Assembly: GCA_034226945.1 (NCBI GenBank) | Contig: CP120459.1 | Location: forward strand, 310,001-374,000 | Source: Picochlorum sp. SENEW3 | Taxonomy: Eukaryota | Direction: 5' to 3' | Length of the DNA stretch: 64,000 nucleotides | In this document: piece by piece, positions 4,464-62,499 of the stretch | Position numbering within the stretch: the stretch's first letter is position 1 | How the letters are laid out: each line of letters begins with the position of its first letter | Made by a program: the position numbers and the translations under genes | The notes under the pieces: model-generated | Told to the model about the DNA's origin: nothing | The model's database searches: none | The model's input: the letters and a program-made list of their open reading frames with translations, nothing else

Positions 4464-7400
4464 ATGGCCGCGCTCGTCGGTGATGATGATGGTGAGAAGA
4501 ATCAAGGAAATGTTCATGATGATGAGAGCATGTGTTGTACGACGAGAACAAACTTGAGCCGGCAGCATGATGAGTACTTTGATCATGTATTGTCACAAGG
4601 GAGGTTGGAGGAGGCCATGGAAGCGTTTGATATGGCCTTTTTCAGCCATTTCGATCGCGTTGTACGTGTTTTAATCATCACTATAAAAAGTAGAAGGGAA
4701 GGTATTGTTGCTAAAAAAAGTACCATCTTGGATGCAGGTTTCCATGTATCAGGAACAGCCACAGTTGCTGGATCCAATACTGGAGGGATTTGTTGGACGG
4801 CTCGCATCCATCATGATGGATCGTGTGTCGTCTATGAAGTATGATGCAGATGATATGCTCAAGGTGGTGTATGTGTCAAAGTTTCTTTGGAAGTTGGCAT
4901 CAGTGCGAGGGTACAAGACAATATTGAGGTTTATGCCATGTGAGGTGTACTGTGTGGAACCTGTGTTTCATTTGTCCCAGGTAGTGACGGGAGGTGCGTG
5001 GAAGTCATCAAAAGACAATTCATGTGAAGAAGTCGCAGATGTGTCGACGTGGGAGTGCGAGTATGTGTGTCTCATGTGGAGTTCTCAGCTGGCCTTGGTG
5101 CCATTCAAATTTGATATTATAGATTCAAGTATGAATGTGGGGCAGGCGTATGATATTGCTCCGTTGGCCCAAACGTTGATTGATGTATGCAAAGATCAAT
5201 TGAAGTCGGCGAGTGCGACGAGAAACATGGCGGCAGTATGTTTGGGTAGGTTGCTTACTCGGCCAGATATGACCAAGGCTTTGATGGATTTTGCGACGTG
5301 GTGCCGTGATGTGCTACACGACGTATCTGAGAATAGTAGTTCAGATGCAAGAGATAGATATAGAGTGTTGTCATTTTTATTGCCTGGGATTATCCTCACG
5401 TGGTCGACCTTGTTCAAGATTGGGAGAGTGCAGGATGAGGGAATACATGCTCTTGCAGCAGAGTTTATTCCGCACGGGATGCGTGTGTTTGAGTCTGAAG
5501 GTGCAAAATCAAATCCTCTTTTGCGTAAATTATGCATCAAGATGACTCAGAGGGCTGTGTTGCTGTGCGTCACGGACGGCAAGGATGCTTGGTTGGCTGA
5601 TGAGGGGACCAGGGATACTGTAGAGATGAGTATTGACGCATTGATCACGGCGTTGGATGACCAGGATACTATTGTGAGGTGGTCTGGTGCGAAAGGAGTG
5701 GGAAGAGTTTCATCCAAACTCCCGTCGTCCTTTGTGAATCAGGTGATTGATTGGATATTGGAGCAGATGCATTCTGTTCTTGCCACTGAGAATAGCTGGC
5801 ATGGGGGATGCTTGGCTCTCGCCGAGCTTACACGTAGGGACCTTATACCTCGCTCCAAAGTATCTGAGATAATTCCTGTGGTTGAGAAGGGGTTGGAATT
5901 TGAAATTCGGCGAGGTTACACGAGTGTGGGTGCAAATGTTCGAGATGCAGCTGCATATGTATGTTGGGCGCTTGCAAGAACCCAATCAAAGGAAGAGATG
6001 CGAGGAGCTGTCTTGAAACTAGCACCGATCCTTATGACAACAGCATGTTATGATCGAGAGGTGAATTGTAGGCGAGCAGCAGCAGCAGCCTTCCAAGAGT
6101 GTGTAGGGCGACTTGGAGAATTCCCCCATGGTATTGATATTCTGACTATTGCTGATTATTTCACCGTGAGCCTTCGAAAAGCGGTGCGTCACTTTCCACA
6201 GAAAACAAAAAATGACTTGTGTGATGCTGAAGAAGACATCTCACCTTGATACATGTCTTTGCAGGCTTACATTGATGTAGCACCACAAGTTGCAGCATTT
6301 CCTGGGTATCATGTACATTTCGCGAGACATCTTTTGGAGAAGAAATTGAGACATTGGGAAAAATCTATCCGAGAACTAGCTGCGCAAGCTCTCGCATCGC
6401 TTGTCCATATCGATGTGGACTATCACTGTATCGAGTCTGTCCCTCGCCTGATCCAATCATGCCCAAGCACTGTGTTGGATGAGAGGCATGGAGCTGTTGC
6501 TGCCCTGGCATGTGTCATCCCTCAAATATATCGAATAAAGAATCGCAAAGATTGGATAGATGTCCGTGAACAAAAGCAGCTCGCGGATATCATTCCAACA
6601 TTGGTCAATGCTGGCTTGACCAAGGGCGTAGGGGGAGAGACAATGAGAGGGGCATTATGCCGCTTGATTGCAAGCCTGTCACAAATGCAGATTCCAATGA
6701 ATGATGATCAGATAATCTGCTTGTACGATATGTGTCGTGAAAATCTAAGCCATCCATCAGAGGATATTCAGTTGGAAGCATCTGCTGCGCTCTCTTCATT
6801 CCTGGACAGACACATTCCACGAGATTGCCTCGATGAGGACCGCGTGCTTACTGATTTGATCCACAACCTTCGTCCAGATTTACATTTCGGAGCGCGACGA
6901 GGTTCGGCAATGGTGTTTGGCAAATTTCCTTCCCGACTCATCAAACAGTACCAGAACGACATCCTCAATGCCCTCATTCCAACAGTGCATCCTGAGGAGC
7001 AGATAGCTGTCCGGGACGTCGAGACTCGAGTAAACGCAATACAGTCTCTCCCTCATGTTCTGAGCGTGATGGATACCTCTGATGCACTAGCATGGCTGGG
7101 CAACGTATTCGATGCACTCCTTGCAGCCCTAGATGACTATTCAACTGACAATAGGGGTGATATTGGTAGCTGGTGTCGGGATGCCGCGGTACGTGCGGCT
7201 ACCCATATCTTTGAGAATCACCCACCAAAATATTATGATCCATCAACATTAGATAAAGCGAGGCACATAGCATACAAGACTGCCCGTGTATCCATTGAGC
7301 GAATCAGCAAGGTACGCCAGACAGCTGGCTCATGCTTGAAGCAAAGCGCAGAACGATATGCAGATGAGCTCCAACTACAATGCATATACGATACTATTAA

Positions 7401-8100
7401 ATCCACCAAAGATGCCGATTTTCAAGAAGGGAAGGCAGTAGCACAGGTTGTCCAAGCAATCAGCCCATCTCACTCACAGCTATCAAAAGAAATTGTCAGT
7501 GGCCTTGTGTACTCCATTGGTGGCCTTGACGCAGCGCTCCAAGAAATGACTGCATCATCACTCGTGAACTTTATCAATAATTGCGATGAAGAGACTGCGG
7601 TATACTGCGGGGAGATTATCCTAGACTTGTGGGAGACCAACCTGAAGAACACGAGACTATCTGTCCCAAGCATCCTCACAGTAGACCATCTACTCTCCAA
7701 TTCTCCCCTCATGTACCACGACGATATTATAGTGAGATCTGTGAGTCTAATACAGAACGCGACGCTAGGTACCGGAGACGTGGGCAAATTATGCAGTGCA
7801 GCAGCGCTCTTGGGCACCATTGTTGGCAATGATACTGGTGGTGGAACCACACCAGATGCACCAGCCATCCGCGTCCTCGTATCACTGATGGGCAAGAAGT
7901 ACCCAAAAGTGCGAAAGATGGCTGCTGAGCAACTCTATACAGCAATGCTTATGTGGGATGAGGAGACAGCCTCAGGATCTGGTATCCTGTTTGACAAAGC
8001 CCAGACCATTCTGATGGACACAGCATGGGATGGACCGGCAGCGGTGGTTAGACCAGCTCGGGAGCGCTTGGCTGCAAGCCTTGGCTTTTCACTTCAGTAA
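4464..8100 (+). CDS. TBCD: Tubulin-folding cofactor D; introns 4662-4737 and 6184-6264
   Basis: YQEQPQLLDP, VRGYK, DTIVRWSGAKGVGR, WHGGCLALAEL, VRDAAAYVCWA, DREVNCRRAAAAAFQE, DDYSTDNRGDIGSW; GT-AG introns restore frame. Confidence 0.93.
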
Positions 8101-8304: not shown

Positions 8305-11300
8305 ATGAGCAAGACAAAAGAGAGTCAGACAGTTGGCCAAAATCTTGGAAGAACAGAGCTGCCCTCTTTTTTCTTGTTGGATGTTGTTCTCATTCCCGAT
8401 GATGAGGAGTATATCTCAAAATACAAGGAATATATTTATGGGGATGGTTCCAGTGAGAAAGATACAAGTGAAGACAACTCTGCTGGGCCCAGTGGCAGTT
8501 CCAGGCCAGGCCAGTTTGGCTTTGGACAGCAGTCTCCTTTAAAACAGGAGGCGACTCCTTCTCGACCTACGGCTGATCATGCCAGTGGTTCCAACAGAGG
8601 TGGTCCGAATCAAGATAAATCTGCTGGGTCTAGTAGCAGTTCCAGACCAGGCCAGTTTGGCTTTGGTCAACAGTTTGCTTTAAGGCAGGAGGCGACTCCT
8701 TCTCGACCTACGGCTGAGAATGCCACTAATTCTAGTGAGGGCCGTCCAAAACAAGACAACTCTGCTGGGCCCAGTAGCAGTTCCAGACCAGGCCAGTTTG
8801 GCTTTGGACAGCAGTCTCCTTTAAAACAGGAGGCGACTCCTCCTCAACCTACGGGTGGTAGCACGAGTCTTTCTTCGCGAGCAGCACGTAGAAAGATGAG
8901 GGTGTGTAGAAATCGATGGGAAAAAGCAAGTAATGGAGGTGACTCTATGCATCCTCAGCTTGGTAGAACAAGTCAAAACGGTGTACCATGGAGAAAAACC
9001 ACGGTGCGTGAAGAGTATGATCATGGTGCGATATGGTATGTTCAATTAGATTCCATCTCGGCTAGGAAAGAATATGCGTCAAAGTGCGTAGAGGAGTTGC
9101 GCTGGGAACATTCCCAGAATACTGTTACAAAGGATTTGGCGGTAATAGAATCATACTCCTGTTTGGAGAAACCGACTCCTTTTCTCATGGCAGTGCTTCA
9201 GGGGAGATTGGCGTTGTGTAAAGTTTTCAGCCATTCTCAGTGGTTATGGGAAAGACGTTGGCCCATGTATCGTACTGATGTCAAAGCTTGCTCACAAATC
9301 ATGATGGGTGTTTTTGTGGCATGTATTCATGGACGAGTGGATATGTTTGAGTGTCTTCTGAAAGCGCTTTTAGAGGGAGGAATAGTGTCTAGTGCTACTG
9401 CATTATCGAGAATTATGCAGTCTAGGGATGAAAATGGAAGAACACCTTGCATTCTTGCATCAATGCATGGACATAACGATGTGTTACAAAGCTTCATCGC
9501 CTTACTCAAAACTCCAACTGTATCCGCTGGGTCTCTGTTCCCGTGGACTGCTCATGTGAATGCGCAAGACAGATTAGGCAAAACAGCACTCATGTATGCA
9601 TGCGAGTCTGGAAATCTTCAGATTGCGAAGACCCTTATCAAACAAGGTGTGAATCTTGATATGCAGGATAAGCATGACTTATCTGCACTTGAATATGCCA
9701 TGAGTAGGGATCACAAGGAAATTATATTGGCCCTGATCAACGCTGGTGCTGATCTGTTTATTAATGGAAAACAGATTTTGATAGGCGCTGCAGAGAAGGG
9801 GGATCTAGAGATGCTCCAGACGTTGATCAAGTTGAATTTCGATTTGAACAGAAAGTGTATTGCGGGACGGACAGCGGTCATGTTTGCCGTACATGAGGAC
9901 CAAGAGGAGGCAGTGCAAACTCTGCTGAAAGCTGGGGCAGATGCAGCTGTGCGCGATGAGAATGATGATACAATACTGACGCTCGCTGCAGAGCATGCAT
10001 CGGCTCGTATGGTTAATGTGTGCTTGGAATATATACCTGCTGAAATGATAGACTTCTGTACACTTCATGAGAGGTGGACAGCATTGATGCTTGCATCCAA
10101 GAGAGGAGATGAAAATATTGTCAAAGCCCTCTTGAAGGCCGGTGCATCCGTCCTGCATAAGCGAGATATTCATATGATGTCGACTATTGATCTCGTGAGC
10201 AATGGCGATCTTGAGAATAAAACCGCCATACTTGAACTCCTCAGGGAAAGAGAGGCAGCAGAGAGACTTGTAGAGCAAATGTCAATACAACAGATTAGTG
10301 AATGCGACCAAGGTGATTCAATCGCATATGACGATCTCAACATTGAGACAGACAGATCTATTGGACGTGGTTCCTTTAGTGTTGTGAAAATGGCAACCTG
10401 GAGAGGCATGGATGTGGCAGTCAAAGAGTTGACATCAAATCTGTCCTTGGACACACAAGACATATTGCGCTCAGAGGTGCAGACATTGTCGTCTCTGCGA
10501 CATCCTTCTATTGTATCATACTATGGTTATTGCGAGGATCCTCCGTGTATTGTTATGGAGCTATGCGCCGACTCACTGAGCAATCTGCTGCACCAATGTG
10601 CGCAAGGGGGTGACAGCAACTCAGATATTGGTCAGACAATGACATGGAAATGCCGCTTGCAGATTGCTACAGACACCGCTGAAGGAATGACGTATTTACA
10701 TAAGGCTAAAAACTATTATCATCGTGATCTTAGAACCGCAAATATTCTCATCACCAGTAGATACCAGGCCAAGATCTCAGACATGGGATTGACAAAGAAA
10801 GCACTCAAAGTAAGCAGAAACTCTGCTGGAACTATTGCAGCATCAACACCGAGGTGGCTGGCACCAGAAATTTTGTCAAATGGCCCATTCACGTCCAAAT
10901 CCGACGTGTACAGCTTTGGCACTGTGCTGTATGAACTTGCAACGTGGAAACAGCCATGGGCTGGCATTGAAGAGTACGGAATCCCTCATCTTATTCTTGT
11001 GAAGAAAGAGCGCCTCACAATTCCAGACTTGGAAAGTATACCTGGACCACAACCAACTGAAGGAGAAACATTCATCAAATTTAGGGAGATTGCAGATAGA
11101 TGTCTCGCAGTTGACCCATCTGACAGACCAGAGTTTGAAGAGATTGTCTCAGAGCTAAAGCAGATACTCAAACGCGAGCAAACGCCAGAAGATCAGCAGA
11201 TGTCTTCTTGCATTGTATGTCTCTCCAAGTCATCTGAATGTGCATACATCAATTGTGGACATTGCTGTGTGTGTGAGGATTGTGCACAAATTGACCCCTG

Positions 11301-11361
11301 CAGTGCTCAGTGCCCAATCTGTAGAAAAGCAGGGCGCCCAACAAAAATTTTCTTCTCGTAG
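8305..11361 (+). CDS. Multidomain protein: FG repeats, GLEBS-like motif, ankyrin repeats, TKL (Raf-like) kinase, C-terminal RING
   Basis: RPGQFGFGQQ x3; SISARKEYASKCVEELRWE; G-x-TALM ankyrin motifs; GRGSFSVV/VAVK/HRDLRTAN/DMG/RWLAPE/SDVYSFG; CIVC...CGHCCVCEDC...CPICR. Confidence 0.85.
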   Translation: MSKTKESQTVGQNLGRTELPSFFLLDVVLIPDDEEYISKYKEYIYGDGSSEKDTSEDNSAGPSGSSRPGQFGFGQQSPLKQEATPSRPTADHASGSNRGGPNQDKSAGSSSSSRPGQFGFGQQFALRQEATPSRPTAENATNSSEGRPKQDNSAGPSSSSRPGQFGFGQQSPLKQEATPPQPTGGSTSLSSRAARRKMRVCRNRWEKASNGGDSMHPQLGRTSQNGVPWRKTTVREEYDHGAIWYVQLDSISARKEYASKCVEELRWEHSQNTVTKDLAVIESYSCLEKPTPFLMAVLQGRLALCKVFSHSQWLWERRWPMYRTDVKACSQIMMGVFVACIHGRVDMFECLLKALLEGGIVSSATALSRIMQSRDENGRTPCILASMHGHNDVLQSFIALLKTPTVSAGSLFPWTAHVNAQDRLGKTALMYACESGNLQIAKTLIKQGVNLDMQDKHDLSALEYAMSRDHKEIILALINAGADLFINGKQILIGAAEKGDLEMLQTLIKLNFDLNRKCIAGRTAVMFAVHEDQEEAVQTLLKAGADAAVRDENDDTILTLAAEHASARMVNVCLEYIPAEMIDFCTLHERWTALMLASKRGDENIVKALLKAGASVLHKRDIHMMSTIDLVSNGDLENKTAILELLREREAAERLVEQMSIQQISECDQGDSIAYDDLNIETDRSIGRGSFSVVKMATWRGMDVAVKELTSNLSLDTQDILRSEVQTLSSLRHPSIVSYYGYCEDPPCIVMELCADSLSNLLHQCAQGGDSNSDIGQTMTWKCRLQIATDTAEGMTYLHKAKNYYHRDLRTANILITSRYQAKISDMGLTKKALKVSRNSAGTIAASTPRWLAPEILSNGPFTSKSDVYSFGTVLYELATWKQPWAGIEEYGIPHLILVKKERLTIPDLESIPGPQPTEGETFIKFREIADRCLAVDPSDRPEFEEIVSELKQILKREQTPEDQQMSSCIVCLSKSSECAYINCGHCCVCEDCAQIDPCSAQCPICRKAGRPTKIFFS
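8473..8853 (+). repeat. Three imperfect ~140-bp intragenic direct repeats encoding SAGPSSSSRPGQFGFGQQSPLKQEATPSRPT
   Basis: tctgctggg..ccaggccagtttggctttgg..caggaggcgactcct recurs near 8479, 8620 and 8761. Confidence 0.9.
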
Positions 11362-11834: not shown

Positions 11835-11842
11835 TATAAATA
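11835..11842 (+). promoter_or_regulatory. TATA box (TATAAATA) of the His-rich repeat gene
   Basis: Consensus TATA ~140 bp upstream of the ATG at 11977, followed by an A-rich leader. Confidence 0.7.
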
Positions 11843-11976: not shown

Positions 11977-14397
11977 ATGCAAGGAAACAACGGAAACGGA
12001 GCAAACCTGCACGGCATGTCATGTCGCGGAAGTTGTCACGACATGGACCAAGCCTCACTTGCATACCACCATACTCTTGCTATGCACTTGATGCATTCCA
12101 TGGGTACTATTTATGGGGCACATTCTCCAGCTGGGGGTTCAGGTAGCAGGGGATGCCACTCTGGATTAGATGCTGCACATGCTGCCCATGGAGCTGATAT
12201 TCATGCTGCCCATGGAATCAATGTCTCGGGAGGGCAAGGATGCCACTCTGGTATGGATGCTGCCCATGGAGGTGATATTCATGCTGCTCATGGAATCAAT
12301 GTCTCGGGTGGATGCCACTCTGGTATGGATGCTGCCCATAAAGGTGATATTCATGCTGCTCATGGAATCAATGTCTCTGGAGGACATGGATGCCACTCTG
12401 GTATGGATGCTGCCCATGGAGGTGATATTCATGCTGCTCATGGAATCAATGTCTCGGGTGGATGCCACTCTGGTATGGATGCTGCCCATGGAGGTGATAT
12501 TCATGCTGCTCATGGAGTAAATGTCTCGGGTGGATGCCACTCTGGTATGGATGCTGCCCATAAAGGTGATATTCATGCTGCTCATGGAATCAATGTCTCT
12601 GGAGGACATGGATGCCACTCTGGTATGGATGCTGCCCATGGAGGTGATATTCATGCTGCTCATGGAATCAATGTCTCGGGTGGATGCCACTCTGGTATGG
12701 ATGCTGCTCATGGAGGTGATATTCATGCTGCTCATGGAGTAAATGTGTCTGGAGGACAGGGATGTCACTCTGGTATGGCTGCTGCCCATGGAGGTGATAT
12801 TCATGCTGCTCATGGAATCAATGTCTCTGGAGGACATGGATGCCACTCTGGTATGGATGCTGCCCATGGAGGTGATATTCATGCTGCTCATGGAATCAAT
12901 GTCTCGGGTGGATGCCACTCTGGTATGGATGCTGCCCATAAAGGTGATATTCATGCTGCTCATGGAATCAATGTCTCTGGAGGACATGGATGCCACTCTG
13001 GTATGGATGCTGCCCATAAAGGTGATATTCATGCTGCTCATGGAATCAATGTCTCTGGAGGACATGGATGCCACTCTGGTATGGATGCTGCCCATGGAGG
13101 TGATATTCATGCTGCTCATGGAATCAATGTCTCGGGTGGATGCCACTCTGGTATGGATGCTGCCCATAAAGGTGATATTCATGCTGCTCATGGAATCAAT
13201 GTCTCTGGAGGACATGGATGCCACTCTGGTATGGATGCTGCTCATGGAGGTGATATTCATGCTGCTCATGGAGTAAATGTGTCTGGAGGACAGGGATGTC
13301 ACTCTGGTATGGCTGCTGCCCATGGAGGTGATATTCATGCTGCTCATGGAATCAATGTCTCTGGAGGACATGGATGCCACTCTGGTATGGATGCTGCCCA
13401 TGGAGGTGATATTCATGCTGCTCATGGAATCAATGTCTCGGGTGGATGCCACTCTGGTATGGATGCTGCCCATAAAGGTGATATTCATGCTGCTCATGGA
13501 ATCAATGTCTCTGGAGGACATGGATGCCACTCTGGTATGGATGCTGCCCATAAAGGTGATATTCATGCTGCTCATGGAATCAATGTCTCTGGAGGACATG
13601 GATGCCACTCTGGTATGGATGCTGCTCATGGAGGTGATATTCATGCTGCTCATGGAGTAAATGTGTCTGGAGGACAGGGATGTCACTCTGGTATGGCTGC
13701 TGCCCATGGAGGTGATATTCATGCTGCTCATGGAATCAATGTCTCGGGTGGATGCCACTCTGGTATGGATGCTGCCCATAAAGGTGATATTCATGCTGCT
13801 CATGGAGTAAATGTGTCTGGAGGACAGGGATGTCACTCTGGTATGGATGCTGCTCATGGAGGTGATATTCATGCTGCTCATGGAGTAAATGTCTCGGGAG
13901 GACAAGAATGCCACTCTGGGCTGGATGCTGCCCATGGAGCTGATATTCATGCTGCTCATGGAGTAAATGTGTCTGGAGGACAGGGATGTCACTCTGGTAT
14001 GGCTGCTGCCCATGGAGGTGATATTCATGGTGCTCATGGAGTAAATGTGTCTGGAGGACAGGGATGTCACTCTGGTATGGATGCTGCTCATGGAGGCGAT
14101 ATCCATGCTTTTCATGGAGTAAATGTCTCGGGAGGACAGGGATGCCACTCTGGTATGGATGCTGCTCATGGAGCTGATATTCATGCTGCTCATGGAGTAA
14201 ATGTCTCTGGAGGACAGGGATGCCACTCTGGATTGGATGCTGTGCATGCTGCCCATGGAGCTGATATTCATGCTGCCCATGGAATCAATGTCTCAGCAGA
14301 CCAGATATGCCAGGTGGATACAGATCAAGATGGAGAAGATGAGGATGCCCCAGCAGACGCAGGTGTTGATGGAGAGGATGGAAAAGATTGCCAATAA
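11977..14397 (+). CDS. His/Gly/Ala-rich tandem-repeat protein (28 x 24/26 aa) with acidic tail; function unknown
   Basis: 806-aa ORF with unique N- and C-termini, TATA and HSE upstream, TGTAA at ~14528 downstream; repeat length variants are all multiples of 3. Confidence 0.8.
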   Translation: MQGNNGNGANLHGMSCRGSCHDMDQASLAYHHTLAMHLMHSMGTIYGAHSPAGGSGSRGCHSGLDAAHAAHGADIHAAHGINVSGGQGCHSGMDAAHGGDIHAAHGINVSGGCHSGMDAAHKGDIHAAHGINVSGGHGCHSGMDAAHGGDIHAAHGINVSGGCHSGMDAAHGGDIHAAHGVNVSGGCHSGMDAAHKGDIHAAHGINVSGGHGCHSGMDAAHGGDIHAAHGINVSGGCHSGMDAAHGGDIHAAHGVNVSGGQGCHSGMAAAHGGDIHAAHGINVSGGHGCHSGMDAAHGGDIHAAHGINVSGGCHSGMDAAHKGDIHAAHGINVSGGHGCHSGMDAAHKGDIHAAHGINVSGGHGCHSGMDAAHGGDIHAAHGINVSGGCHSGMDAAHKGDIHAAHGINVSGGHGCHSGMDAAHGGDIHAAHGVNVSGGQGCHSGMAAAHGGDIHAAHGINVSGGHGCHSGMDAAHGGDIHAAHGINVSGGCHSGMDAAHKGDIHAAHGINVSGGHGCHSGMDAAHKGDIHAAHGINVSGGHGCHSGMDAAHGGDIHAAHGVNVSGGQGCHSGMAAAHGGDIHAAHGINVSGGCHSGMDAAHKGDIHAAHGVNVSGGQGCHSGMDAAHGGDIHAAHGVNVSGGQECHSGLDAAHGADIHAAHGVNVSGGQGCHSGMAAAHGGDIHGAHGVNVSGGQGCHSGMDAAHGGDIHAFHGVNVSGGQGCHSGMDAAHGADIHAAHGVNVSGGQGCHSGLDAVHAAHGADIHAAHGINVSADQICQVDTDQDGEDEDAPADAGVDGEDGKDCQ
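12154..14295 (+). repeat. Coding minisatellite, 28 units of mostly 72/78 bp, with higher-order blocks
   Basis: Unit tgccactctggtatggatgctgcccatggaggtgatattcatgctgctcatggaatcaatgtctc(g/t)gg...; 28 CHSG motifs counted. Confidence 0.97.
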
Positions 14398-14780
14398 TGA
14401 ATGTTCACATCTGAAAATGATTGCGAAATCTCACACGGTTACATGTATGATGGTATCACATGTGATGACTCATCATTTGCTACAGTTGCGTTCGGAGCAT
14501 TGTCACAACATCAAGTTTTCATGAATCTGTAACACTGAATACATGGCAACCATTATAACTAATCTCGATAGAAGCATATACCCTTAAGAAGAATGTACAA
14601 CGAGGCATGAGTTCATCCGTGTCGTGTTCATGTACGAATACGGCAAGCTTGAGCTTGTGGAAGACTTTGGTCTCAGAAGCTGCGCCAAGTGCAGTCTCAA
14701 AAAATTTGCTTTTTTTTCATCTCAAGAACATCCATAGTACTCAAAAATGTTCTTCATGGATATGTGTAACGTTAATTATC

Positions 14781-15896
14781 ATGAAAGAGACATTCAACGG
14801 ATGTAGTACAAAAAAAGGTATCGTGGTCGTCTTGGTCACCTTCACGTCTTTGGCTGCCTTCTTTACTCTATTGCCTTTTCAAAGCCACGGACATGGATCA
14901 TCAACGCATTTTCACATATTCACGAGGTCGGAGAAAAAGCTCATATGGGTTACCTCGATACATGGGGATCATCCTGATGGAATTTGCTATCTGAAAATGG
15001 CCCTGAAGAGTGCTGTTCAAAAGTGTACAAGTCTGTTTCCAGTCGTCCTTCATGCAGGTCAGGTAAGCCACCAAATAGATTTGAAACTCTACGGAAAGTT
15101 TGCTACATTCATCAACTTCGAATCAAACTATACATCAGTGCTGAAAGCTCGCTACCAAGTGGAGTCCATAGGTTCAGTATTTGCCCGCTTGGAATCTGCT
15201 TCTGTGTTGATGCACAGTATCAAATCAGGGGCTTTGCGCGGTAAAAATCTCATTACATCTCATTTTATGTACACAGATGTCGATATAATGTTCATGAGAG
15301 ATTTTCCTGTCCAAACGCTTTCCACTCCATCCTCTGTGGCCTTTAGTTCTCAAATACTACAAATTCCAACACCTGAAAATACAGGTGTGATGATCATTAA
15401 TACGTCATGGCTACATCAGGAAGTGTCTCATATCATGAGCTACGGTTTGGCCACAAATTTTAAACACGTAGCTATGGACCAAGGACTGCTTATAGACTAT
15501 TTGCACAAAATTGGTATCAAACCAGAGTATCTGGACCTGGTGTACAATTGGAAAGCATACTGGGGAGGTAATCGTACGACTCCCTTCATCGTCCATTGGC
15601 ACGGCCCAAAGCCATTAGACAATTGCAGCGAGTGCATCTACATGAACTACAAATCTGGTCAGATATCTAGAAAGTGGCTGGAGAATCCAATCAAAACGAC
15701 ATCAGTAGGAGGATCATTCATGATTGGAGATTTCAATGCATCACAGTGTGATCATAGTGAGATTTGTCCCCGAATTTATCTTGAAGTTTTGAGGGCTCAG
15801 CACAGCAATATAGGGGACTGGATTCGTCGTTTTGAGGAATACACATCCACATCAAACAATGTATGCTTGAATGAATCCTACCAGTCTCTTGCATGA
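14781..15896 (+). CDS. GT8-like glycosyltransferase, type II membrane anchor
   Basis: N-terminal TM (IVVVLVTFTSLAAFFTLL); YTDVDIMF (DxD), NTGVMIIN, DQGLL, YNW, IVHWHGPKP. Start chosen at MKETF. Confidence 0.75.
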   Translation: MKETFNGCSTKKGIVVVLVTFTSLAAFFTLLPFQSHGHGSSTHFHIFTRSEKKLIWVTSIHGDHPDGICYLKMALKSAVQKCTSLFPVVLHAGQVSHQIDLKLYGKFATFINFESNYTSVLKARYQVESIGSVFARLESASVLMHSIKSGALRGKNLITSHFMYTDVDIMFMRDFPVQTLSTPSSVAFSSQILQIPTPENTGVMIINTSWLHQEVSHIMSYGLATNFKHVAMDQGLLIDYLHKIGIKPEYLDLVYNWKAYWGGNRTTPFIVHWHGPKPLDNCSECIYMNYKSGQISRKWLENPIKTTSVGGSFMIGDFNASQCDHSEICPRIYLEVLRAQHSNIGDWIRRFEEYTSTSNNVCLNESYQSLA

Positions 15897-20208: not shown

Positions 20209-23049
20209 CTATTGCATGGGAGAGTCGCCCAATTGTTTTGCTGTATCTTGAAGTGGTGAAGCTGTTGTCCAATCTAGTGAGGTCCTTTCTTTGGGACCAT
20301 CTAGTGATTTCTTGATTCCTTTCATCGTTGATGAAAACGCTTTTTTGACGCTCCGTAAGGTGCTCTTCCCTTTTAGTCGACGAATTTCCATTCGGAGAGC
20401 TGAAATTTCATTGACGAGTTGCTGTTCATGCCTTGCAAATGCATCTTCTCGTTGGGCCAAGACCATCTTCTGTGCTGCCAGATTCATCGACATTGTGTTG
20501 TATGATTCTAGTAAATCTGCTGTGGTTTTTGCACTGAGTTGCGCTGTTTTGAGATCTCCGACCTCACCCTTTAGCTTCTGAGCCAAATCAGAATCACGTG
20601 CCATCTGCACAGGGGTATCACAGTGAATAACGCATGCACCTCAAAACAACAACACATTCATGTCGTACCTTGACGGTCAATTTTGATAGCTCTTCTTGGA
20701 GCATTTGAATTGCTTCATTATATAATTCTTCATCATCTGCGCCAGACTGCTTTTTGCTGATGAGACTGTCAAGGACGGATGACAAGGCTCCTGCCGACAC
20801 CATACCAAGATTTGCTGACTTGGCAAAGAGTTTCTCTGGAGAGTTTTCTCCTGATGATAGTCCTGCTGTCGGGGCAGATGGGGTAACGAATTCTTCTTGT
20901 TCTTTTGCTGGCGATTCGACCTTGACTGGAGTAAGCTTTTCTGGTGTTGCATGGCTCCTCTCTGTTGCCTGTGCCTCTCCCAGCTGGATCACATTTGGTT
21001 CTTCAGAGGAAAGCTCTTTGTACCGTTTTGATTCTTCTACAGCTTCATCTCTTTCCAATTTCAATGTCTCTATTTCTGCAAGAAGAATTTCTATCCTTTG
21101 GACTTCAGTGGGCGGCATTCTTGCATCTTGATTACTATTACTGGCCATCACACCTCCATCTCCCTCTCTCTCAAGTCCTGTGCTTGGTGTATCTGATCCC
21201 AGAGTGGGAGGAATTACAAAGTGCTCTGCAGGAATCGATCGTGCATCCTCACCATCATGTACCTGGGAATCATCGGTGTTCTTTGCCTGCTCTTCTTCAA
21301 GGCTATGTAATTTCTCAACAAACTCATCCTTTTCCTTGGTCACTTGCTCAATCACTTCTTCTTGCTGCTTTAATCTCAGATTCAAATTCATTATAAGTGC
21401 ATCCTTTTCCTTGAATGCATTCACTTGCTCATTTTCAATTTGTGCAAGCGATGCTGTCTTTTGCTCTTGTTCGGATACCATGGTATCCTTCAACTCTTTC
21501 ACATGTTGTACAAGCATCATGTTTTCCTCCTTCAACCTCACCTGTTCCCGATATAAATCCTCATATATTTTGGAGTCTTCTTGCGCTTCGTATACAGAAG
21601 TGTCCCTAGCTCGTTCAATATGTTCTTGCCGAGGTGGAGGTTCGTTCATGAATAGAGTATATTCATACTCCCCAATACTCTACACAACAGAGAAGAGAAA
21701 AATCAATCATACAGTCCTTGATCCACGATAATGTACCCTAAACCATACCTTGGCAAGCTTATCTTTGACTTTACAGAGTTCTACATCTTTTGCAGAAGCC
21801 GCGCGTGCAACAGCTGCATGCGAGGACCGCAATGCCAAAATGGCTCCCTCCTTCACAGCCAGCACATCTTGTAACATGCCAACCTCCTTCCGAAGCTCCT
21901 GTATCGTGAACGTACTATTCCCTGCACATGAAATGTTGCAAATATCGTTTCGATCGATAAAAAGACTACAAATACATGCAGAGAAAAGGAAAAAACAAAT
22001 CCTGGCCATCACATACCAAATTGTTCTGCCACATGCTCTGAACAGACAATCTTCTCAACCTCTCCATCAACAGACCCGAGAATCCGCTTCATTAAGACCT
22101 TGTTCGCCACATCTTCCTCTTGATACGACTGAAGCGATTTCTTACACGATTCTAACTCGGACGCAAGCGCCTCAACTTGAGCCGCATGCACCGCCATTGG
22201 CACAAACCCTCCACCTGCCATTCTCTCAGCCTCAGCAGCAACAGCCTTTTCTGATATATCCACAGCATCAGCCATTTTTTGAGCAGCTTCCATAGAAATA
22301 GCATCTGCCTCCGCCTTCAGCTTCTTTGCCTCCACCATCTCCTCTCGCTGCCCTTCCAACACCTCAAGCACCTCCTCCAGCTCTGCTTGCTTCCTTGCAA
22401 GTGCAGCCTTCAACTCCTCAACCTCCCCCTCTACAATCTTCCCAAACTGATGCTCTCCCCCCAACATATCCTCCATATCCTTCAACTGCCGTCTCAAATC
22501 CAAAATGACATTCTGATCATGCTTCCTCATCGCATTTGCCTCCTTGGCACTCTCAATGTCTGCCTGCCCCTGCTCTATGGCCATATCCTTTGCCTTTACT
22601 ACATTCTCAAGACTCTTAATCTCGTCCTTCAAAGACAATATATCCTTACGAGACTGAGCCAACTGATTGCGCAATTTGACCACATCCTCCATACTCCCAT
22701 TCATCACCTTTGAATTCGCTCCAGCACTGTCCAGCATCAGTCTGTTCAGCCTATCAGCCTCTTTGTTCGACGCTTCAGCTATCGCCTGCAATCTCTTCCG
22801 CTCTTCATCCCATTTTTTAGACATTCGTTTCATAGATTTTAATTCCGTCTCAGCTTGCAGCGCCCTCTCCTCTGCCTGCTTCTGACTCGACGCAAATTTG
22901 TCAATGACATTGTCCTTGAGTCCAAGTTGCTCTTGGATCACATCAATTTCCTTCTTGAGGCTCTTAATCTCATTCTTTTTTACTTTTAATTCATTTTGAA
23001 GATCTTTGACGTGGTATGCCAACGTCTCGCTGCCTCTGGGCGAGGCCAT
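20209..23049 (-). CDS. Long coiled-coil protein, MAP70-like (microtubule-associated), ~4 exons
   Basis: Four consecutive coiled-coil ORFs linked by GT-AG introns; segments resemble plant MAP70 (KKWDEERK, LENVVKAKDMAI, ELRKEV...KEGAI). Confidence 0.55.
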
Positions 23050-23601
23050 GGTTGAAACTCGCAAGAGTGTCCTCGTAGAGATACTCTCTGTACAGTATCT
23101 GTACTAAATATCTTACAAGATGTAATCTTGTTGTAATTAAATGTATATTGTGTCGAGCAGACGAGGATCCATAAGCAGTGGATCGATGTGGAACCGGTAC
23201 GAATGACACGTGTGTTACATTTTGAAAAATATTGGACACCTACATCCTTCAGTTCGCTAGAAGCGTGCCATGTACATACAGGGCCATTCCACGATCTGAA
23301 CTTGTATCGATTTTATGCGATCTGAGTGGATAGATGTACTTTGCGCTCCATAGAATACACCCCATGCCATGCATTTCTGTGACTCAGAAATGACCTGACC
23401 TGCAGCTGCAGGTCTGTGTGTAGATCTTAGATGAGATCTCCAAGCCAATCTAGATCAGCCACGTCGAAAAAACAACGATATGGTGGTTGCCATCTCTTCG
23501 ATTCAGGTTGATTAAATCATTAACGGATAATAACAGAGTACGATGGATTGTTGAGGTTGAGATACGAACGTAAAACCAAGGAAAAGTTAAGAAAACCAAA
23601 C

Positions 23602-38949: not shown

Positions 38950-39164
38950 CACTCTGAAGTGCTCTATATATCCTAACACATATGGAATACACCGCCAAGA
39001 CCCGTGATACATCCAGAACGTGCCGTATCTGATTAATTAGGATGTTTAAGAAATTTGCCTCGAGATCAAAAGCCTAGCCGTGCTTTGATAAAAAACCACT
39101 CAGAAGGCCTTGCTGTGGCATTCTTTCCTTTAGAAATCTTTAATTAGAGTAACGTGTGAATACG

Positions 39165-40538
39165 ATGGATGCGAAAGGTCCCTGTGGTATGTGTAGTACT
39201 TGTCACGAGTGTGGTGTGTGTAGGCGGACGGGCGTTATATTTCTCCATGTTTCTGCAGACCTGTCGGGATATTGGGTTCTCTCCAAGACTGAGCACTTTG
39301 ATGAGTTTTTAAAAGCTCTGGGTGTCCCTTGGATTGTAAGAAAGGCTGCCATCAAATTTGGCAGCAATGGCATGGAAATTATCAGGCACGCGGGGACGGC
39401 TGTTCGCGTGACGAGTTTGAATCCAAAAGGCAGTTGGCATAGAATGTACGATACATCAAAGGCGTTGCAGGGGCAGGATGTTGCCGGGAATGCGTGCACG
39501 ATTCGGGCGAAATGGGACGGAAGTGTGTTGTGTACTACGCTGGAAGGGTCACCGTTTGGGACGTGTGAGACGCATCGATACGTGCGAGGGAGTACGATGG
39601 TTGTGAAGAGTTCTGTGAAGAATACAGAGGGGGTTGAGGCGACCTGTTATTGGTGGTATGAGAGGATGGAGGTGTTGGAGAGGGAGTTTGGTCCTACTCG
39701 GAGGATGTTGCACAAGCACTTGGCAGCAGATCAGAAGAGAGTGGATCATGCGACGAAGAAGGATACTATATTTATGAGGTCTATATTATTAGATTGGAAT
39801 AGATGGGAGAGTCCTGCTGATGAATATATTGTTGTGAATGGTAGCAAGGCGAGGCGCAAGAGTGTGCGATCCAGGCAGAGGAGTCCTGCATCGTCAGCAA
39901 CGTGTACGCCTGGGAGTATGTCGGCGTCGCCGTCTGGGACAGCGTTGAATAAGATGGGGAAAACAGAACAACAGCCACATCAGGAAGAAGTGTCGGCAAT
40001 TCTGTCGCAAAAGCCGACAGATCATGCGCGGCACCCTCTTCCAGTGCATCCAGTGAAGCGGGCAGCATCACCTGGTCTTCAACCAGAGGGAGTGCAGCGG
40101 GGGATGACGAGACGGTTTGGTTCATCGGATAATTTATCAGAAACGTCGTTTCAAAGAATACCTCATTATCGTAGTACGTCTAGTGATAGTTTGCCGAATG
40201 TCAATGTAGGACAGAAGAGTAGGGAAGTGCTAGAAAGGCCACCGCCAACAGCAGCAGAAGCCATGATGGCAATGAAACTGCACGAGTTTGTGGAAACGTA
40301 TGGAATCACATCGGTTATACCGGTAGTAAATCCACACGATACCACAGAACCTCAGCTGTTGGGTATGAGTCCTGAACAGGCTGAAGAGACAACGGCAAAA
40401 CTTCGTGAACTAGAAACAGAAATGCTCCTGCGTCGGCAGGAGGAATCGAATTCGTTCACATTCTGTGGACTCGTGGTATCGTTAGAGAGAGATACTATAC
40501 CAGATCATTTACGAGTATGGGAAATGACATTATTTTAA
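39165..40538 (+). CDS. FABP/iLBP-like beta-barrel domain plus disordered C-terminal region; in-frame intron 39187-39258
   Basis: DLSGYWVLSKTEHFDEFLKALGVPWIVRKAA matches the FABP N-terminal signature; ends GVEATCYWWYER. Confidence 0.7.
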   Translation: MDAKGPCGMCSTCHECGVCRRTGVIFLHVSADLSGYWVLSKTEHFDEFLKALGVPWIVRKAAIKFGSNGMEIIRHAGTAVRVTSLNPKGSWHRMYDTSKALQGQDVAGNACTIRAKWDGSVLCTTLEGSPFGTCETHRYVRGSTMVVKSSVKNTEGVEATCYWWYERMEVLEREFGPTRRMLHKHLAADQKRVDHATKKDTIFMRSILLDWNRWESPADEYIVVNGSKARRKSVRSRQRSPASSATCTPGSMSASPSGTALNKMGKTEQQPHQEEVSAILSQKPTDHARHPLPVHPVKRAASPGLQPEGVQRGMTRRFGSSDNLSETSFQRIPHYRSTSSDSLPNVNVGQKSREVLERPPPTAAEAMMAMKLHEFVETYGITSVIPVVNPHDTTEPQLLGMSPEQAEETTAKLRELETEMLLRRQEESNSFTFCGLVVSLERDTIPDHLRVWEMTLF

Positions 40539-49287: not shown

Positions 49288-49983
49288 TTATGCACAGCTG
49301 GAAATGACCGCTGCCAGCACAACAAATGCGTGCAGAGACGGGCGCAGCATGGCAGCCCACGATGCTGGGCCCTCCGCAAGGTACTCGGCCATCTGTAGCT
49401 CTGCCAGAGTGTTGTTTCTTGGACCCTCGGGAATGTCAGTGAATGGACACACGCAATAGAAATCGCTCACCCCGTACTTGTTGCCCTCGTCAAGCTCGAA
49501 AGGATAGGCTACGTACTGTCGCAGAGCCCCATCCGCGTAGCTTCCGGTTAGCTGACCGGTGGTTTGGTTGTACGGATATGAGAAATTAAACATTTTCCCG
49601 GTGTCCATATTCTCCAGCACCTGATCATACACGCCCTCCGTGATGTTCGCGAACGTCTCAGCTGCCTCCCCGGACAAGCTCTCGTAGATTCCCCCGTGCG
49701 TGACACCCTCGGCGTTTGGATGCACGCCCCATTCGACAGATTTCCAATCAGGACCATTGAGAACACAGCAAAGCACATAGGGTCCTGAGGGAGAGTCGAT
49801 CTGCTGTTTGTGCACTCGTTGCTCGAGCTTCGGCAGGCCTGCGCCACCCTCCACAGTGTCTTTCACCTCATCCAGCAATTGGGCGCAGATAGGGTAATTC
49901 TTTTCGACCTCTTCCGATTGGTCTTGCGATCTCACCGAACCCAAAGCGGCAAGGAGAGCAACGAGGAGGTGGATCCGCGTCAT
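49288..49983 (-). CDS. Secreted, probably GPI-anchored protein with single Cache-like domain
   Basis: Signal peptide MTRIHLLVALLAALGSVRS; PYVL...VHP...G...FSYPYNQTTGQ...YV; hydrophobic C-terminus without cytosolic tail. Confidence 0.6.
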   Translation of the reverse strand: MTRIHLLVALLAALGSVRSQDQSEEVEKNYPICAQLLDEVKDTVEGGAGLPKLEQRVHKQQIDSPSGPYVLCCVLNGPDWKSVEWGVHPNAEGVTHGGIYESLSGEAAETFANITEGVYDQVLENMDTGKMFNFSYPYNQTTGQLTGSYADGALRQYVAYPFELDEGNKYGVSDFYCVCPFTDIPEGPRNNTLAELQMAEYLAEGPASWAAMLRPSLHAFVVLAAVISSCA

Positions 49984-50451
49984 CCCTTGTGGCGTTTTTC
50001 GAGCGACAGATGGATGGGTATTTTCACAGGTATTATTTCTCAAGTTGAGTCCATTCAATGGGCATCCTGCGGCACTGGAAGCGCCTTGATGTAGCCACCA
50101 GGCACATGCGCCTGGTGCGCACCAAATTCCGCGTCCTCTTTTCCTCGCCCAGTCAGGCAAGACCACCTAGTTGACGCCGCCCGGTAGGGCTCGAGGGTTG
50201 AGGTTGGATTTGCTTCGGGGGGGCACCGCTAGTAGACCACAGCAAAAATGGATAAGGGCGCCAGACTCCAGCTGGAGTCTGCAGGCAGTCTCTGTGAATT
50301 TCTTTTCGATTCGAAAATATTTGGCGGCGGTACAGGGTGATGCAGAATATTCTGCATGCCAATCATTTGTCTAATGTGGTATTACAGCATACACCTACTA
50401 CTATCATGATTATGAAAAACCATTACAATTAACACTATCACCCTTGGTTGC

Positions 50452-55275: not shown

Positions 55276-55659
55276 TCATAGATAGATCACATTTTGATAC
55301 TAAATATCTAGTACTACAATGTAATAATGTAAAATCCGGGTACATGCAGCCGAGATCTTGCCAACAGATCTCTGTACCATCTGAGTGCTCTGTCAAGAAC
55401 ATGGCATGCATGCATGCCATGAAGACCGCTTCAGCAGCGTCCCTACCAAACACATTACACTAAATTTATTCATAAGCAAGACGAAAGCGTCACATTTTGG
55501 TCATTCAGAGACAGATAGGTCGGGCTCCGCAGCCGGTTGACTGAGTTTTGTAGTTCAGTTCACGACGCAGAAAGCTTTCATTCGACAACGAAATCGGATT
55601 CATCTGAGTATATTACGAATAGTTTTGGAGGATATCAGAGGAGCATTGTACTGGTCGAA

Positions 55660-56619
55660 ATGCCGCTGTTGAACAACAACATTTTTGCGGCACTGAAAAG
55701 GACGAAGAAGGAGCCAGCGAAGGAGGTGGCTGAGGAATCAGAAAATGGTAATGGTATTACTATTGAAGAGCAGAATGAAAAGCACGATGAGATCGAAAAG
55801 GCAATTTTCGATTCATCCGCCGGCTTTGGGGACTGGGCCGAAGAGGCCGAAGGAGACTGGGGAGCCACTCCCGCACCCGCTGATATAGAAAATGACGATG
55901 GATGGACGATGCAGACATCAAAAACGAGCACAAAGAGTAAAAAGAGAGGAGGAAATAGGAAGAATAGGAACAAGAAGAAGCCAGAGGCTCTGGTGAGTCA
56001 GCAGGAGGAGGAGAAGGCTGAGGATGTTGCTGTGCCACCTGATATGGAAGAAATCATGGCGGAGATAGATGTGGAAGCTGAGCTTGGCATTGAGTTAGCA
56101 AGGTCTGACGATGAGGAAGATAGCAGTGAGGAAGAAGAAGAAGAGGAGGAGGAGGAGACTGTTCCACCCCCTGCAACGGTGACACAGCAGCAGGAACCAA
56201 AGCAGCAAAACTTATCCAAGAAGGAGATGCAGGAACGTAAAAAGAAGGAGTTGGAGGATTTGGATGCCATGTTAGCAGAGCTGGGAGTTGATACTCAGCA
56301 GCAACAGCAGACGCAGAGCAGCACCACATCTGCAAAGGCAGCAAAGCGCAAGGCGAAGAAGGAACGCAAGGCTGCATCTCAGGCAGGCAGCAATTCCGAC
56401 AATGATCAGAATACAGAGCAGAATACTTCCGGAAACGCTCCTTCAGGTCCCGCAATCGATCCAGATGCCGTCAAAGCTGCCAAGGCAGCTGTGAAGAAGA
56501 AGGCAGGAGCTAAAAAACCAGCATCTGCAGCCCAAGCTGCTGCCAAGGCAGCAGCAGCAGCAGCTAAAAAGAAAAAGGGCAAGGATGCATCTAAATTTAA
56601 TGAATTCCCCACGAGATGA
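55660..56619 (+). CDS. Charged low-complexity protein of a plant-conserved type; function unknown
   Basis: DWAEE motif, LSKKE...KKKELEDLDAMLAELG, C-terminal KKKK...FNEFPTR. Confidence 0.7.
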   Translation: MPLLNNNIFAALKRTKKEPAKEVAEESENGNGITIEEQNEKHDEIEKAIFDSSAGFGDWAEEAEGDWGATPAPADIENDDGWTMQTSKTSTKSKKRGGNRKNRNKKKPEALVSQQEEEKAEDVAVPPDMEEIMAEIDVEAELGIELARSDDEEDSSEEEEEEEEEETVPPPATVTQQQEPKQQNLSKKEMQERKKKELEDLDAMLAELGVDTQQQQQTQSSTTSAKAAKRKAKKERKAASQAGSNSDNDQNTEQNTSGNAPSGPAIDPDAVKAAKAAVKKKAGAKKPASAAQAAAKAAAAAAKKKKGKDASKFNEFPTR

Positions 56620-62400: not shown

Positions 62401-62499
62401 GTAGGACTCGAGGGCTTTCTTCATTTCTCGCTTGGATCCAATCCTTGGAAACCCAATCGTCGAAGAACAGTAAAGATGTGATGATGCGATCTGAGACAT
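59407..62499 (-). CDS. METE: Cobalamin-independent methionine synthase, 7 exons, reading frame intact
   Basis: [80 protein letters not shown]; six GT-AG introns checked for phase (intron 1 = 61875-61421). Confidence 0.96.
61674..61742 (-). ncRNA. tRNA-like cloverleaf lacking an anticodon, inside METE intron 1
   Basis: GAACCCT TG GCTG ACTGGTA AAGC A CTCCA GAAA TGGAG ATCAT CAAGG TTCAAAT CCTTG AGGGTAC T: 6/7 acceptor pairs, D-arm with GG, perfect T-arm/B-box, 4-nt loop where the anticodon should be. Confidence 0.75.

Follow-up and report, generated by a model that had tools for sequence, protein, structure and literature searches.

In a stretch of Picochlorum sp. SENEW3 DNA, 64,000 nucleotides (nt) long (GenBank assembly GCA_034226945.1, contig CP120459.1, positions 310,001 to 374,000 of the forward strand; hereafter the window, with positions counted from its first letter), an open reading frame (ORF) of 806 amino acids (aa) at 11977..14397 (+) carries 28 tandem repeat units rich in potential metal ligands. 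Judged from its sequence and that of its relatives, the best explanation of this ORF would be a genuine nuclear gene limited to Picochlorum-type algae. We hypothesize that the product is a flexible, cytosolic and pH-titratable metal buffer with many sites (for copper, zinc or nickel), the capacity of which would scale with the number of repeats, and we give this reading a probability of roughly 0.4. If the protein does bind metal, it would be a compact eukaryotic metal buffer with a capacity set by repeat number in very close relatives, a clear case of rapid adaptive tuning through minisatellite expansion, a starting point for understanding how industrial, fast-growing Picochlorum strains manage their metals and possibly a natural metal-capture scaffold. 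If it is merely a young low-complexity ORF, it would be ordinary.

The array was delimited at both DNA and protein level. Tandem Repeats Finder reports a 78-nt period at 12179-14294 (27.6 copies, 89% matches, score 3213) together with higher-order periods of 228 and 306 nt, a degree of repetition far beyond chance. Cutting the protein at each CHSG gives 28 units, of which 18 are 26 aa and 8 are 24 aa long, while the first has 29 aa and the last merges into the tail. The tetrad HAAH is present in every unit, and unit position 5 is Met in 25/28, with Leu in units 1, 24 and 28. A first-pass annotation, made from the sequence and a list of its ORFs, had described 28 tandem CHSG units with one Cys, 4-5 His and usually one Met each, a description that the ORF, Tandem Repeats Finder and the division into units all confirm. 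Its mention of an Asn-Val-Ser sequon in each unit (28 counted) and of an acidic tail was equally accurate. More specifically, the composition of the 806-aa protein is G 23.3%, A 16.3%, H 16.1%, D 7.9%, S 7.8%, C 4.0% and M 3.8%, and its potential ligands comprise 130 His, 32 Cys (one in each of the 28 units, 2 in the head and 2 in the tail), 31 Met and 64 Asp. Motif counts are 40 for HxxH, 25 for HxxM, 26 for MxxxH, 29 for CH and 28 for NxS, and the CHxxM group is directly preceded by His-Gly in 9 units. Acidic residues number 68 and basic residues are very few; the isoelectric point is 6.09, with a calculated charge of +68 at pH 5 that becomes -46 at pH 7. As the first reading had also noted, no signal-peptide-like segment is found in the first 70 residues, where the longest hydrophobic run is 3 residues.

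The same reading had parsed the whole unit into three stretches of 8 residues. Hydropathy autocorrelation at lag 8 does reach 0.45 (against 0.63 at lag 26), but only 8/28 units have the 24 (3 x 8) aa implied by such a division. Only the octamer (G/A)(G/A)D(I/V)HAAH behaves as an 8-residue module.

Several lines of evidence indicate which frame of the array is coding. The length of the ORF is in itself no proof, because the array is open in one antisense frame as well: stop codons there number 0, 11 and 35 in the three plus frames and 1, 65 and 17 in the three minus frames. Plus frame 0 is the only one that runs from the array into unique sequence on both sides, and an in-frame TAG stands 8 codons 5' of its ATG. 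With a codon score of 0.324, it is also the best of the six frames (the others score 0.125, -0.435, 0.025, -0.38 and -0.076) and is bracketed by the scores of neighbouring genes (0.08-0.43). Furthermore, although the inter-unit variants are few, 9 of 21 distinct single-base changes are synonymous in plus frame 0 compared to an expected 23.5% (binomial P = 0.039), the ratio of nonsynonymous to synonymous changes per site is 0.41 as opposed to 0.79-1.84 in the other five frames, and variable columns fall 10, 6 and 4 times on codon positions 3, 2 and 1 (third-position excess, P = 0.09). Units in the window are 72, 78 or 87 nt long, every difference being a multiple of 3. Because of this codon usage, the pattern of synonymous and nonsynonymous change and the conservation of the unique ends described below, we take the plus frame to be a real gene. 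The antisense ORF of 704 aa was considered as a gene and rejected, as it has a codon score of 0.025, where the sense frame reaches 0.324, shows a variant ratio of 1.51 and ends within the array; we judge it to be a by-product of the repeat.

Word-indexed searches of a set of 5.8 billion proteins found two relatives, one among proteins of near length (P0001) and one among shorter proteins (P0002). P0001 is a gene model of P. renovo (eukprot jgi/Picre1 NNA_004048), mis-fused and with at least 11 units. P0002 is a complete protein of 164 aa with the same kind of head and tail (…CQVDTD…DCQE) around 3 units only. Their heads are 86-92% identical to that of the window protein (54/59 residues for P0001, 49 of the first 57 for P0002), and head residues 20-43 are invariant across all three. 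A search with the head on its own pointed to P0002 alone among 12 candidates scored. A phmmer run against 1.84 billion representatives, which was the search that covered proteins longer than 1411 aa, returned 27 matches at E <= 0.001, among them P0002 as a genuine relative, and 5 inspected matches of the remaining 26 (P0003, P0004, P0005, P0007 and P0008) are unrelated low-complexity repeats.

The first-pass annotation recognised no known family in this protein, and these searches bear it out. The 806-aa protein has 0 Pfam matches at E <= 0.01 and 0 Protein Data Bank (PDB) sequence matches at E <= 1. It is present letter for letter in the Atlas, where it has no feature neighbours; neither the 164-aa homologue nor the complete protein gave a usable match in feature searches there, and its structural neighbours are unnamed bacterial hypothetical proteins with template modelling (TM) scores <= 0.48. 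No paralogue of head, unit or tail was found by tblastn in the 64-kb window. Literature searches with the motif strings and with the P. renovo gene identifier found no paper on the repeat protein; those on Picochlorum histidine-rich proteins gave unrelated papers only, and those on Picochlorum metals and on green-algal histidine-rich metal-binding tandem repeats gave nothing relevant among the matches listed. On present data, the family thus appears confined to Picochlorum-like genomes.

The P. renovo model NNA_004048 is a chimera, in which a kinase without its RING finger is joined to the 5' leader of the repeat gene, and it is annotated as a CTR1-like kinase. Aligned with the kinase encoded directly upstream in the window, the front of the model is identical in 810/1017 alignment columns, with 129 gaps, which places the alga of the window near P. 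renovo without the two being identical. It skips part of the kinase domain together with the RING finger and looks mis-spliced. The kinase gene of the window (8305-11361, +) has N-terminal Ser/Pro/Gly/Gln repeats (…SSSSRPGQFGFGQQ…), the count of which differs from that of the P. renovo model and appears as a 37-residue gap. Expression of NNA_004048 is recorded as a log counts per million of 6.03, with a log fold change of -0.93 at 35 versus 8.75 g/L salt (false discovery rate 1.2e-4). Because the model fuses the kinase to the repeat gene, these values mix two genes.

The array itself carries a record of its history. Sorting units 1-27 by DNA identity gives the series ABCBDCBEFBCCBCEFBCCEGHIJKLM, that is 13 types, in which B occurs 7 times, C occurs 8 times and the block EFBCC recurs. 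Units 2-20 are drawn from few DNA-identical types and units 21-27 are all unique. This pattern marks recent unequal crossing-over in the 5' and central parts of the array, and the inner units are recent amplifications that include copies identical in DNA. The first and last units match P0002 units at 25/29 and 24/29 positions, and the internal consensus of the window at only 23/29 and 20/29. They had been described earlier as sharing an extra HAA and a Leu, which is correct, and as capping repeats, which this comparison does not favour: because they are closer to the P0002 units than to their own consensus, we regard them as ancestral units that have remained at the margins while the array grew.

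The units also differ in length: those of the window have 24, 26 or 29 aa, those of P0001 21-34 aa and those of P0002 19-27 aa (19, 21, 24, 26, 27, 29, 32 and 34 aa when all three proteins are taken together). The octamer is absent from the first unit of both P0002 (19 aa) and P0001 (21 aa), occurs once in the inner units of the window and twice in three units of P0001 (32-34 aa). The last 39 residues of P0001 match the +1 frame of the window, with VWMLPMEVIF as the longest common string, and show an 8-residue period (20/30 positions identical at lag 8). Such a period is what several consecutive octamers would give in the +1 frame, and the octamer would then range from 0 to at least 4 copies per unit. 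Unit number itself is 3, at least 11 and 28, an approximately 9-fold spread among proteins with 86-92% identical heads. Since such different numbers are tolerated in near-identical backgrounds, we favour a capacity-type function that scales with valency.

Metal binding would be the most natural reading of the ligand-rich make-up. We propose that each unit of 24-26 aa acts as a short metal-chelating cassette with two kinds of site. The segment (H-G-)C-H-S-G-M would form a soft site of thiolate, imidazole and thioether ligands, suited to Cu(I) or to Zn, Cd or Ni, and the segment D-A-A-H-G-G-D-I-H-A-A-H would form an imidazole/carboxylate site suited to Zn(II), Ni(II) and Cu(II). The head, with GMSCRGSC and MHLMHSM, could add further ligands. 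A protein of 28 such units would be a high-capacity buffer or sequestering protein of moderate affinity with tens of sites, for which Cu and Zn are the first candidates. Its approximately 130 His would make both binding and net charge switch near pH 6, such that mild acidification would release the metal. Without an export signal and with very few basic residues, the protein should be soluble and, by default, cytosolic. From a Gly content of 23%, units of 19-34 aa and the lack of a confident fold from any method, we infer a flexible chain, which may become ordered on binding metal. Unequal recombination would tune the capacity by changing both how many units there are (3, at least 11, 28) and how many HAAH octamers each contains. 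The chemistry has a precedent in synthetic peptides: Ac-HAAH-NH2 and Ac-HAAHGH-NH2 are reported to form imidazole-coordinated Ni(II) complexes over pH 4-8 in a paper that also cites earlier Cu(II) work (PMC9182408). These bis-histidine peptides share HAAH with every unit and, being synthetic, show which chemistry is allowed and not how the repeat protein behaves.

Some observations weigh against this proposal. Cys makes up only 4% of the residues, far from a metallothionein, and no neighbouring gene has a metal-related function, although linkage means little in a eukaryote. No transcript or peptide is assignable to the repeat gene alone, the sole expression value being that of the fused P. renovo model. 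The hydrophobic positions of the unit (M/L, I/V, I/V and V) vary only conservatively, and the partly ordered models described below (AlphaFold2 and Atlas, mean confidence approximately 60-64, predicted TM score 0.52-0.59) would fit an ordered solenoid better than a flexible chain. Finally, P0001 leaves the His-rich frame after unit 11, which, if real and not a PacBio insertion or deletion error, would mean that the tail is dispensable or that the gene is decaying there. This loss of 1 nt may be an assembly error: FALCON was used to assemble the 14.4-Mb P. renovo genome (46.2% GC) from PacBio RSII reads, and the available part of its description makes no mention of short-read polishing. Frameshifting length variants in relatives had been named at the outset as an observation that would speak against the initial interpretation; a frameshift is indeed seen in P0001 but, possibly being a PacBio error, is not decisive.

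Among known systems, the nearest parallels are proteins defined by composition. Plasmodium HRP2, with AHH/AAD repeats, and Helicobacter Hpn are His-rich low-complexity binders of metal or heme. The repeat protein resembles both in its tandem short repeats rich in His, Ala and Asp, its high ligand density and its lack of a globular domain. Its unit is however longer (24-26 aa), with fixed Cys, Met, Asn-Val-Ser and Gly turns, its His content of 16% is lower than that of HRP2 or Hpn, and no sequence relationship was seen among the phmmer matches. SilE and PcoE are periplasmic disordered Ag/Cu binders with HxxM and MxxH motifs. Here the likeness lies in 25 HxxM motifs and in a presumed disorder without metal that gives way to order on binding, and the difference in 0 matches to MxxH, the lack of homology and the lack of a signal peptide. 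The bacterial copper-resistance proteins CopA and CopB contain repeated MXXMXHXXM ('MDH') motifs, the number of which, 5 to 14, is not the same in close paralogues (PMC3056050). As in these PcoA/PcoB-type proteins, tandem Met/His ligand motifs (here HxxM and MxxxH) occur in variable copy number. In contrast to them, the repeat protein has one Met per unit plus a Cys, neither a multicopper-oxidase nor a CopB domain, no export signal and a eukaryotic host, and MXXMXHXXM has 0 matches in the window protein, P0001 and P0002. By analogy, the protein would be most like this loose class of His-rich low-complexity metal binders (HRP2, Hpn, SilE/PcoE and the CopA Met/His repeats), with no detectable shared ancestry.

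Other classes fit less well. CxC, CxxC and CC, as expected of a metallothionein, have 0 matches in the window protein, where Cys is 4.0%. The HMA motif GMxCxxC is absent from the window protein and from P0002, occurs once in the P. renovo head, and there is no Pfam HMA match. With no signal peptide and no Pfam match, the protein does not resemble a curli-type secreted amyloid.

The first-pass annotation had pointed to a very different molecule, a beta-solenoid with stacked His/Cys ladders or else a functional amyloid. Spelled out, this would be a rigid parallel beta-helix with three sides, or an amyloid, in which each unit forms a rung and His, Cys and Asn, stacked in ladders, bind metal ions or heme along its length. 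We consider this unlikely, although it is the alternative that survives best. AlphaFold2, run on the single sequence, does return a beta-helix for the whole protein, with three short strands per unit (MDAAH / IHA / INVSG), a mean pLDDT (the predicted score in the local distance difference test) of 59.9 and a predicted TM score (pTM) of 0.52; 231/806 residues lie at 70-90, 0 lie at >=90 and the termini are below 50. The Atlas's own model of the protein reaches pTM 0.59 and pLDDT 0.64. The model's three strands per turn of approximately 24-26 residues recall the right-handed parallel beta-helix of pectate lyase, tailspikes and autotransporter passengers, and it is mostly proteins of this kind that head the Foldseek list. 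The lag-8 hydropathy autocorrelation and hydrophobic positions that exchange just M for L and I for V point the same way. However, the other four AlphaFold2 models have pLDDT of only 44.8, 44.3, 38.7 and 29.4, and the antisense ORF, folded as a control, likewise comes out almost entirely as beta strands (pLDDT 52.2, pTM 0.45; 40.7-47.4 in its other models). The sense frame exceeds this control by some margin (59.9 versus 52.2, and 231 versus 0 residues at >=70), but the prediction is weak evidence for a solenoid. In a study by Pratt et al., AlphaFold2 classed 32/78 random perfect repeats as beta-solenoids, and natural near-perfect repeats may share this artefact (PMC11795689). The all-beta model of a non-coding antisense frame is a warning in the same sense: a mid-confidence solenoid means little for near-perfect repeats.

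Structural comparison and repeat anatomy argue further against a regular stack. A Foldseek search of PDB yields no match with E <= 0.001, the lowest E being 0.34 and TM nowhere above 0.31, and no Pfam match links the protein to right-handed beta-helix families. Because units span 19-34 aa, with 0 to at least 4 octamers, and because a 3-unit protein exists that could not alone form a stable solenoid, one unit per rung is disfavoured; each unit moreover offers few large hydrophobic residues (M, I, I/V and V). With no confident model, no significant structural match and a rung length that is not constant, we do not assign the protein to the beta-solenoids. Of the first-pass interpretation, the lack of a known family, the lack of a signal peptide and the wealth of ligands hold good and the gene looks real, whereas the solenoid is not established and the caps are better explained as ancestral units. 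A four-copy self-association prediction for residues 55-140 of P0002 scored 0.02, which counts neither way.

A second alternative keeps the flexible chain and dispenses with metal. The protein would be a disordered, His-titratable polyampholyte serving as a scaffold for condensates that respond to pH, as a late embryogenesis abundant (LEA) type of stress protectant or as a sacrificial oxidant sink through its His, Met and Cys. The charge swing between pH 5 and pH 7, the low-complexity composition rich in Gly, Ala and His and a unit number, or valency, that varies freely among relatives are all in keeping with it, as would be the salinity response of the fused P. renovo model. This response is however unassignable owing to the kinase fusion, and high salt lowers the value rather than raising it. 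The protein shows neither a K-segment-like pattern nor a Pfam match to LEA or dehydrin families, and pure electrostatics would leave the invariant Cys of each unit and the Met/His-rich head unexplained. On balance we think it improbable.

No more credible, in our estimation, is an evolutionarily young ORF in which a minisatellite expands neutrally, with no selected protein function and possibly no translation. It would account for a family limited to three very close genomes, for the many DNA-identical units, which speak of very recent amplification, and for the frameshifted P. renovo copy, and a search for independent expression or peptide evidence found none. Against it stand the invariant 24-residue block of the head and the conserved tail, both kept despite a 9-fold spread in unit number, the synonymous excess specific to the sense frame, a codon usage like that of neighbouring genes and the fact that all length variants in the window are in frame; the P. 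renovo loss of 1 nt may, as noted, be a PacBio RSII error. Least probable of all is a metal-templated beta-helix, in which units loaded with Cu, Zn or Ni would stack, 3-unit relatives would do so end to end, and Cys/His/Asn ladders would hold dozens of ions as a store or as a conductive or catalytic 'metal wire'; if true, both the fold family and this manner of holding metal in a eukaryotic cell would be new.

The features of the locus are collected below.

Features of the repeat gene and its flanks (window coordinates)
Feature	Position	Strand	Remarks
TATA-like element TATAAATA	11835..11842	+	~135 nt 5' of start codon; candidate core promoter, read from sequence
Start codon and unique 59-aa head	11977..12153	+	His/Met/Cys-rich; contains GMSCRGSC and MHLMHSM
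28-unit array	12154..14295	+	CHSG(M/L)DAAH-(G/K/A)(G/A)DIHAAH-G(I/V)NVSGG(HG/QG); units of 24-29 aa
Acidic 33-aa tail and stop codon	14296..14397	+	two Cys: …CQVDTD…DCQ
TGTAA, candidate polyadenylation signal of green-algal type	14528..14532	+	131 nt 3' of stop
Antisense ORF, 704 aa, Ser/Met/Ile-rich	12166..14280	-	confined to array; stops short of unique sequence

TGTAA is the usual polyadenylation signal in chlorophytes. Upstream GTAC cores (11593, 11726 and 11857) were considered as copper-response elements and set aside, because 3 in 615 nt compared to approximately 2 expected is not significant.

The repeat gene lies among ordinary eukaryotic genes in a window of 43-50% GC. These encode the ankyrin-kinase-RING protein, tubulin cofactor D, an isoamylase-like protein, a formate/nitrite transporter, PRMT5, NMD3, a proteasome subunit and GTPases of Obg and Era type. 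A transfer RNA scan and Rfam gave 0 matches in the window. Directly 3' of the repeat gene, an ORF at 14607-15896 (+) has no Pfam match at E <= 0.01, and its first ~95 residues include a hydrophobic stretch that resembles a membrane span. Five more long ORFs, with no Pfam match at E <= 1e-5, are located at 20618-21649 (-), 22009-23064 (-), 39156-40538 (+), 49288-50166 (-) and 55537-56619 (+). At 61729-62499 (-), a 256-aa ORF contains the N-terminal domain only of cobalamin-independent methionine synthase and probably represents a single exon from a larger gene. Tubulin cofactor D (4705-8100, +) is read as two same-frame ORFs split by a TGA at 6247-6249; an 81-nt GTGCGT…TTGCAG stretch (~6184-6264) spans this TGA and is most simply a short in-frame intron within one gene.

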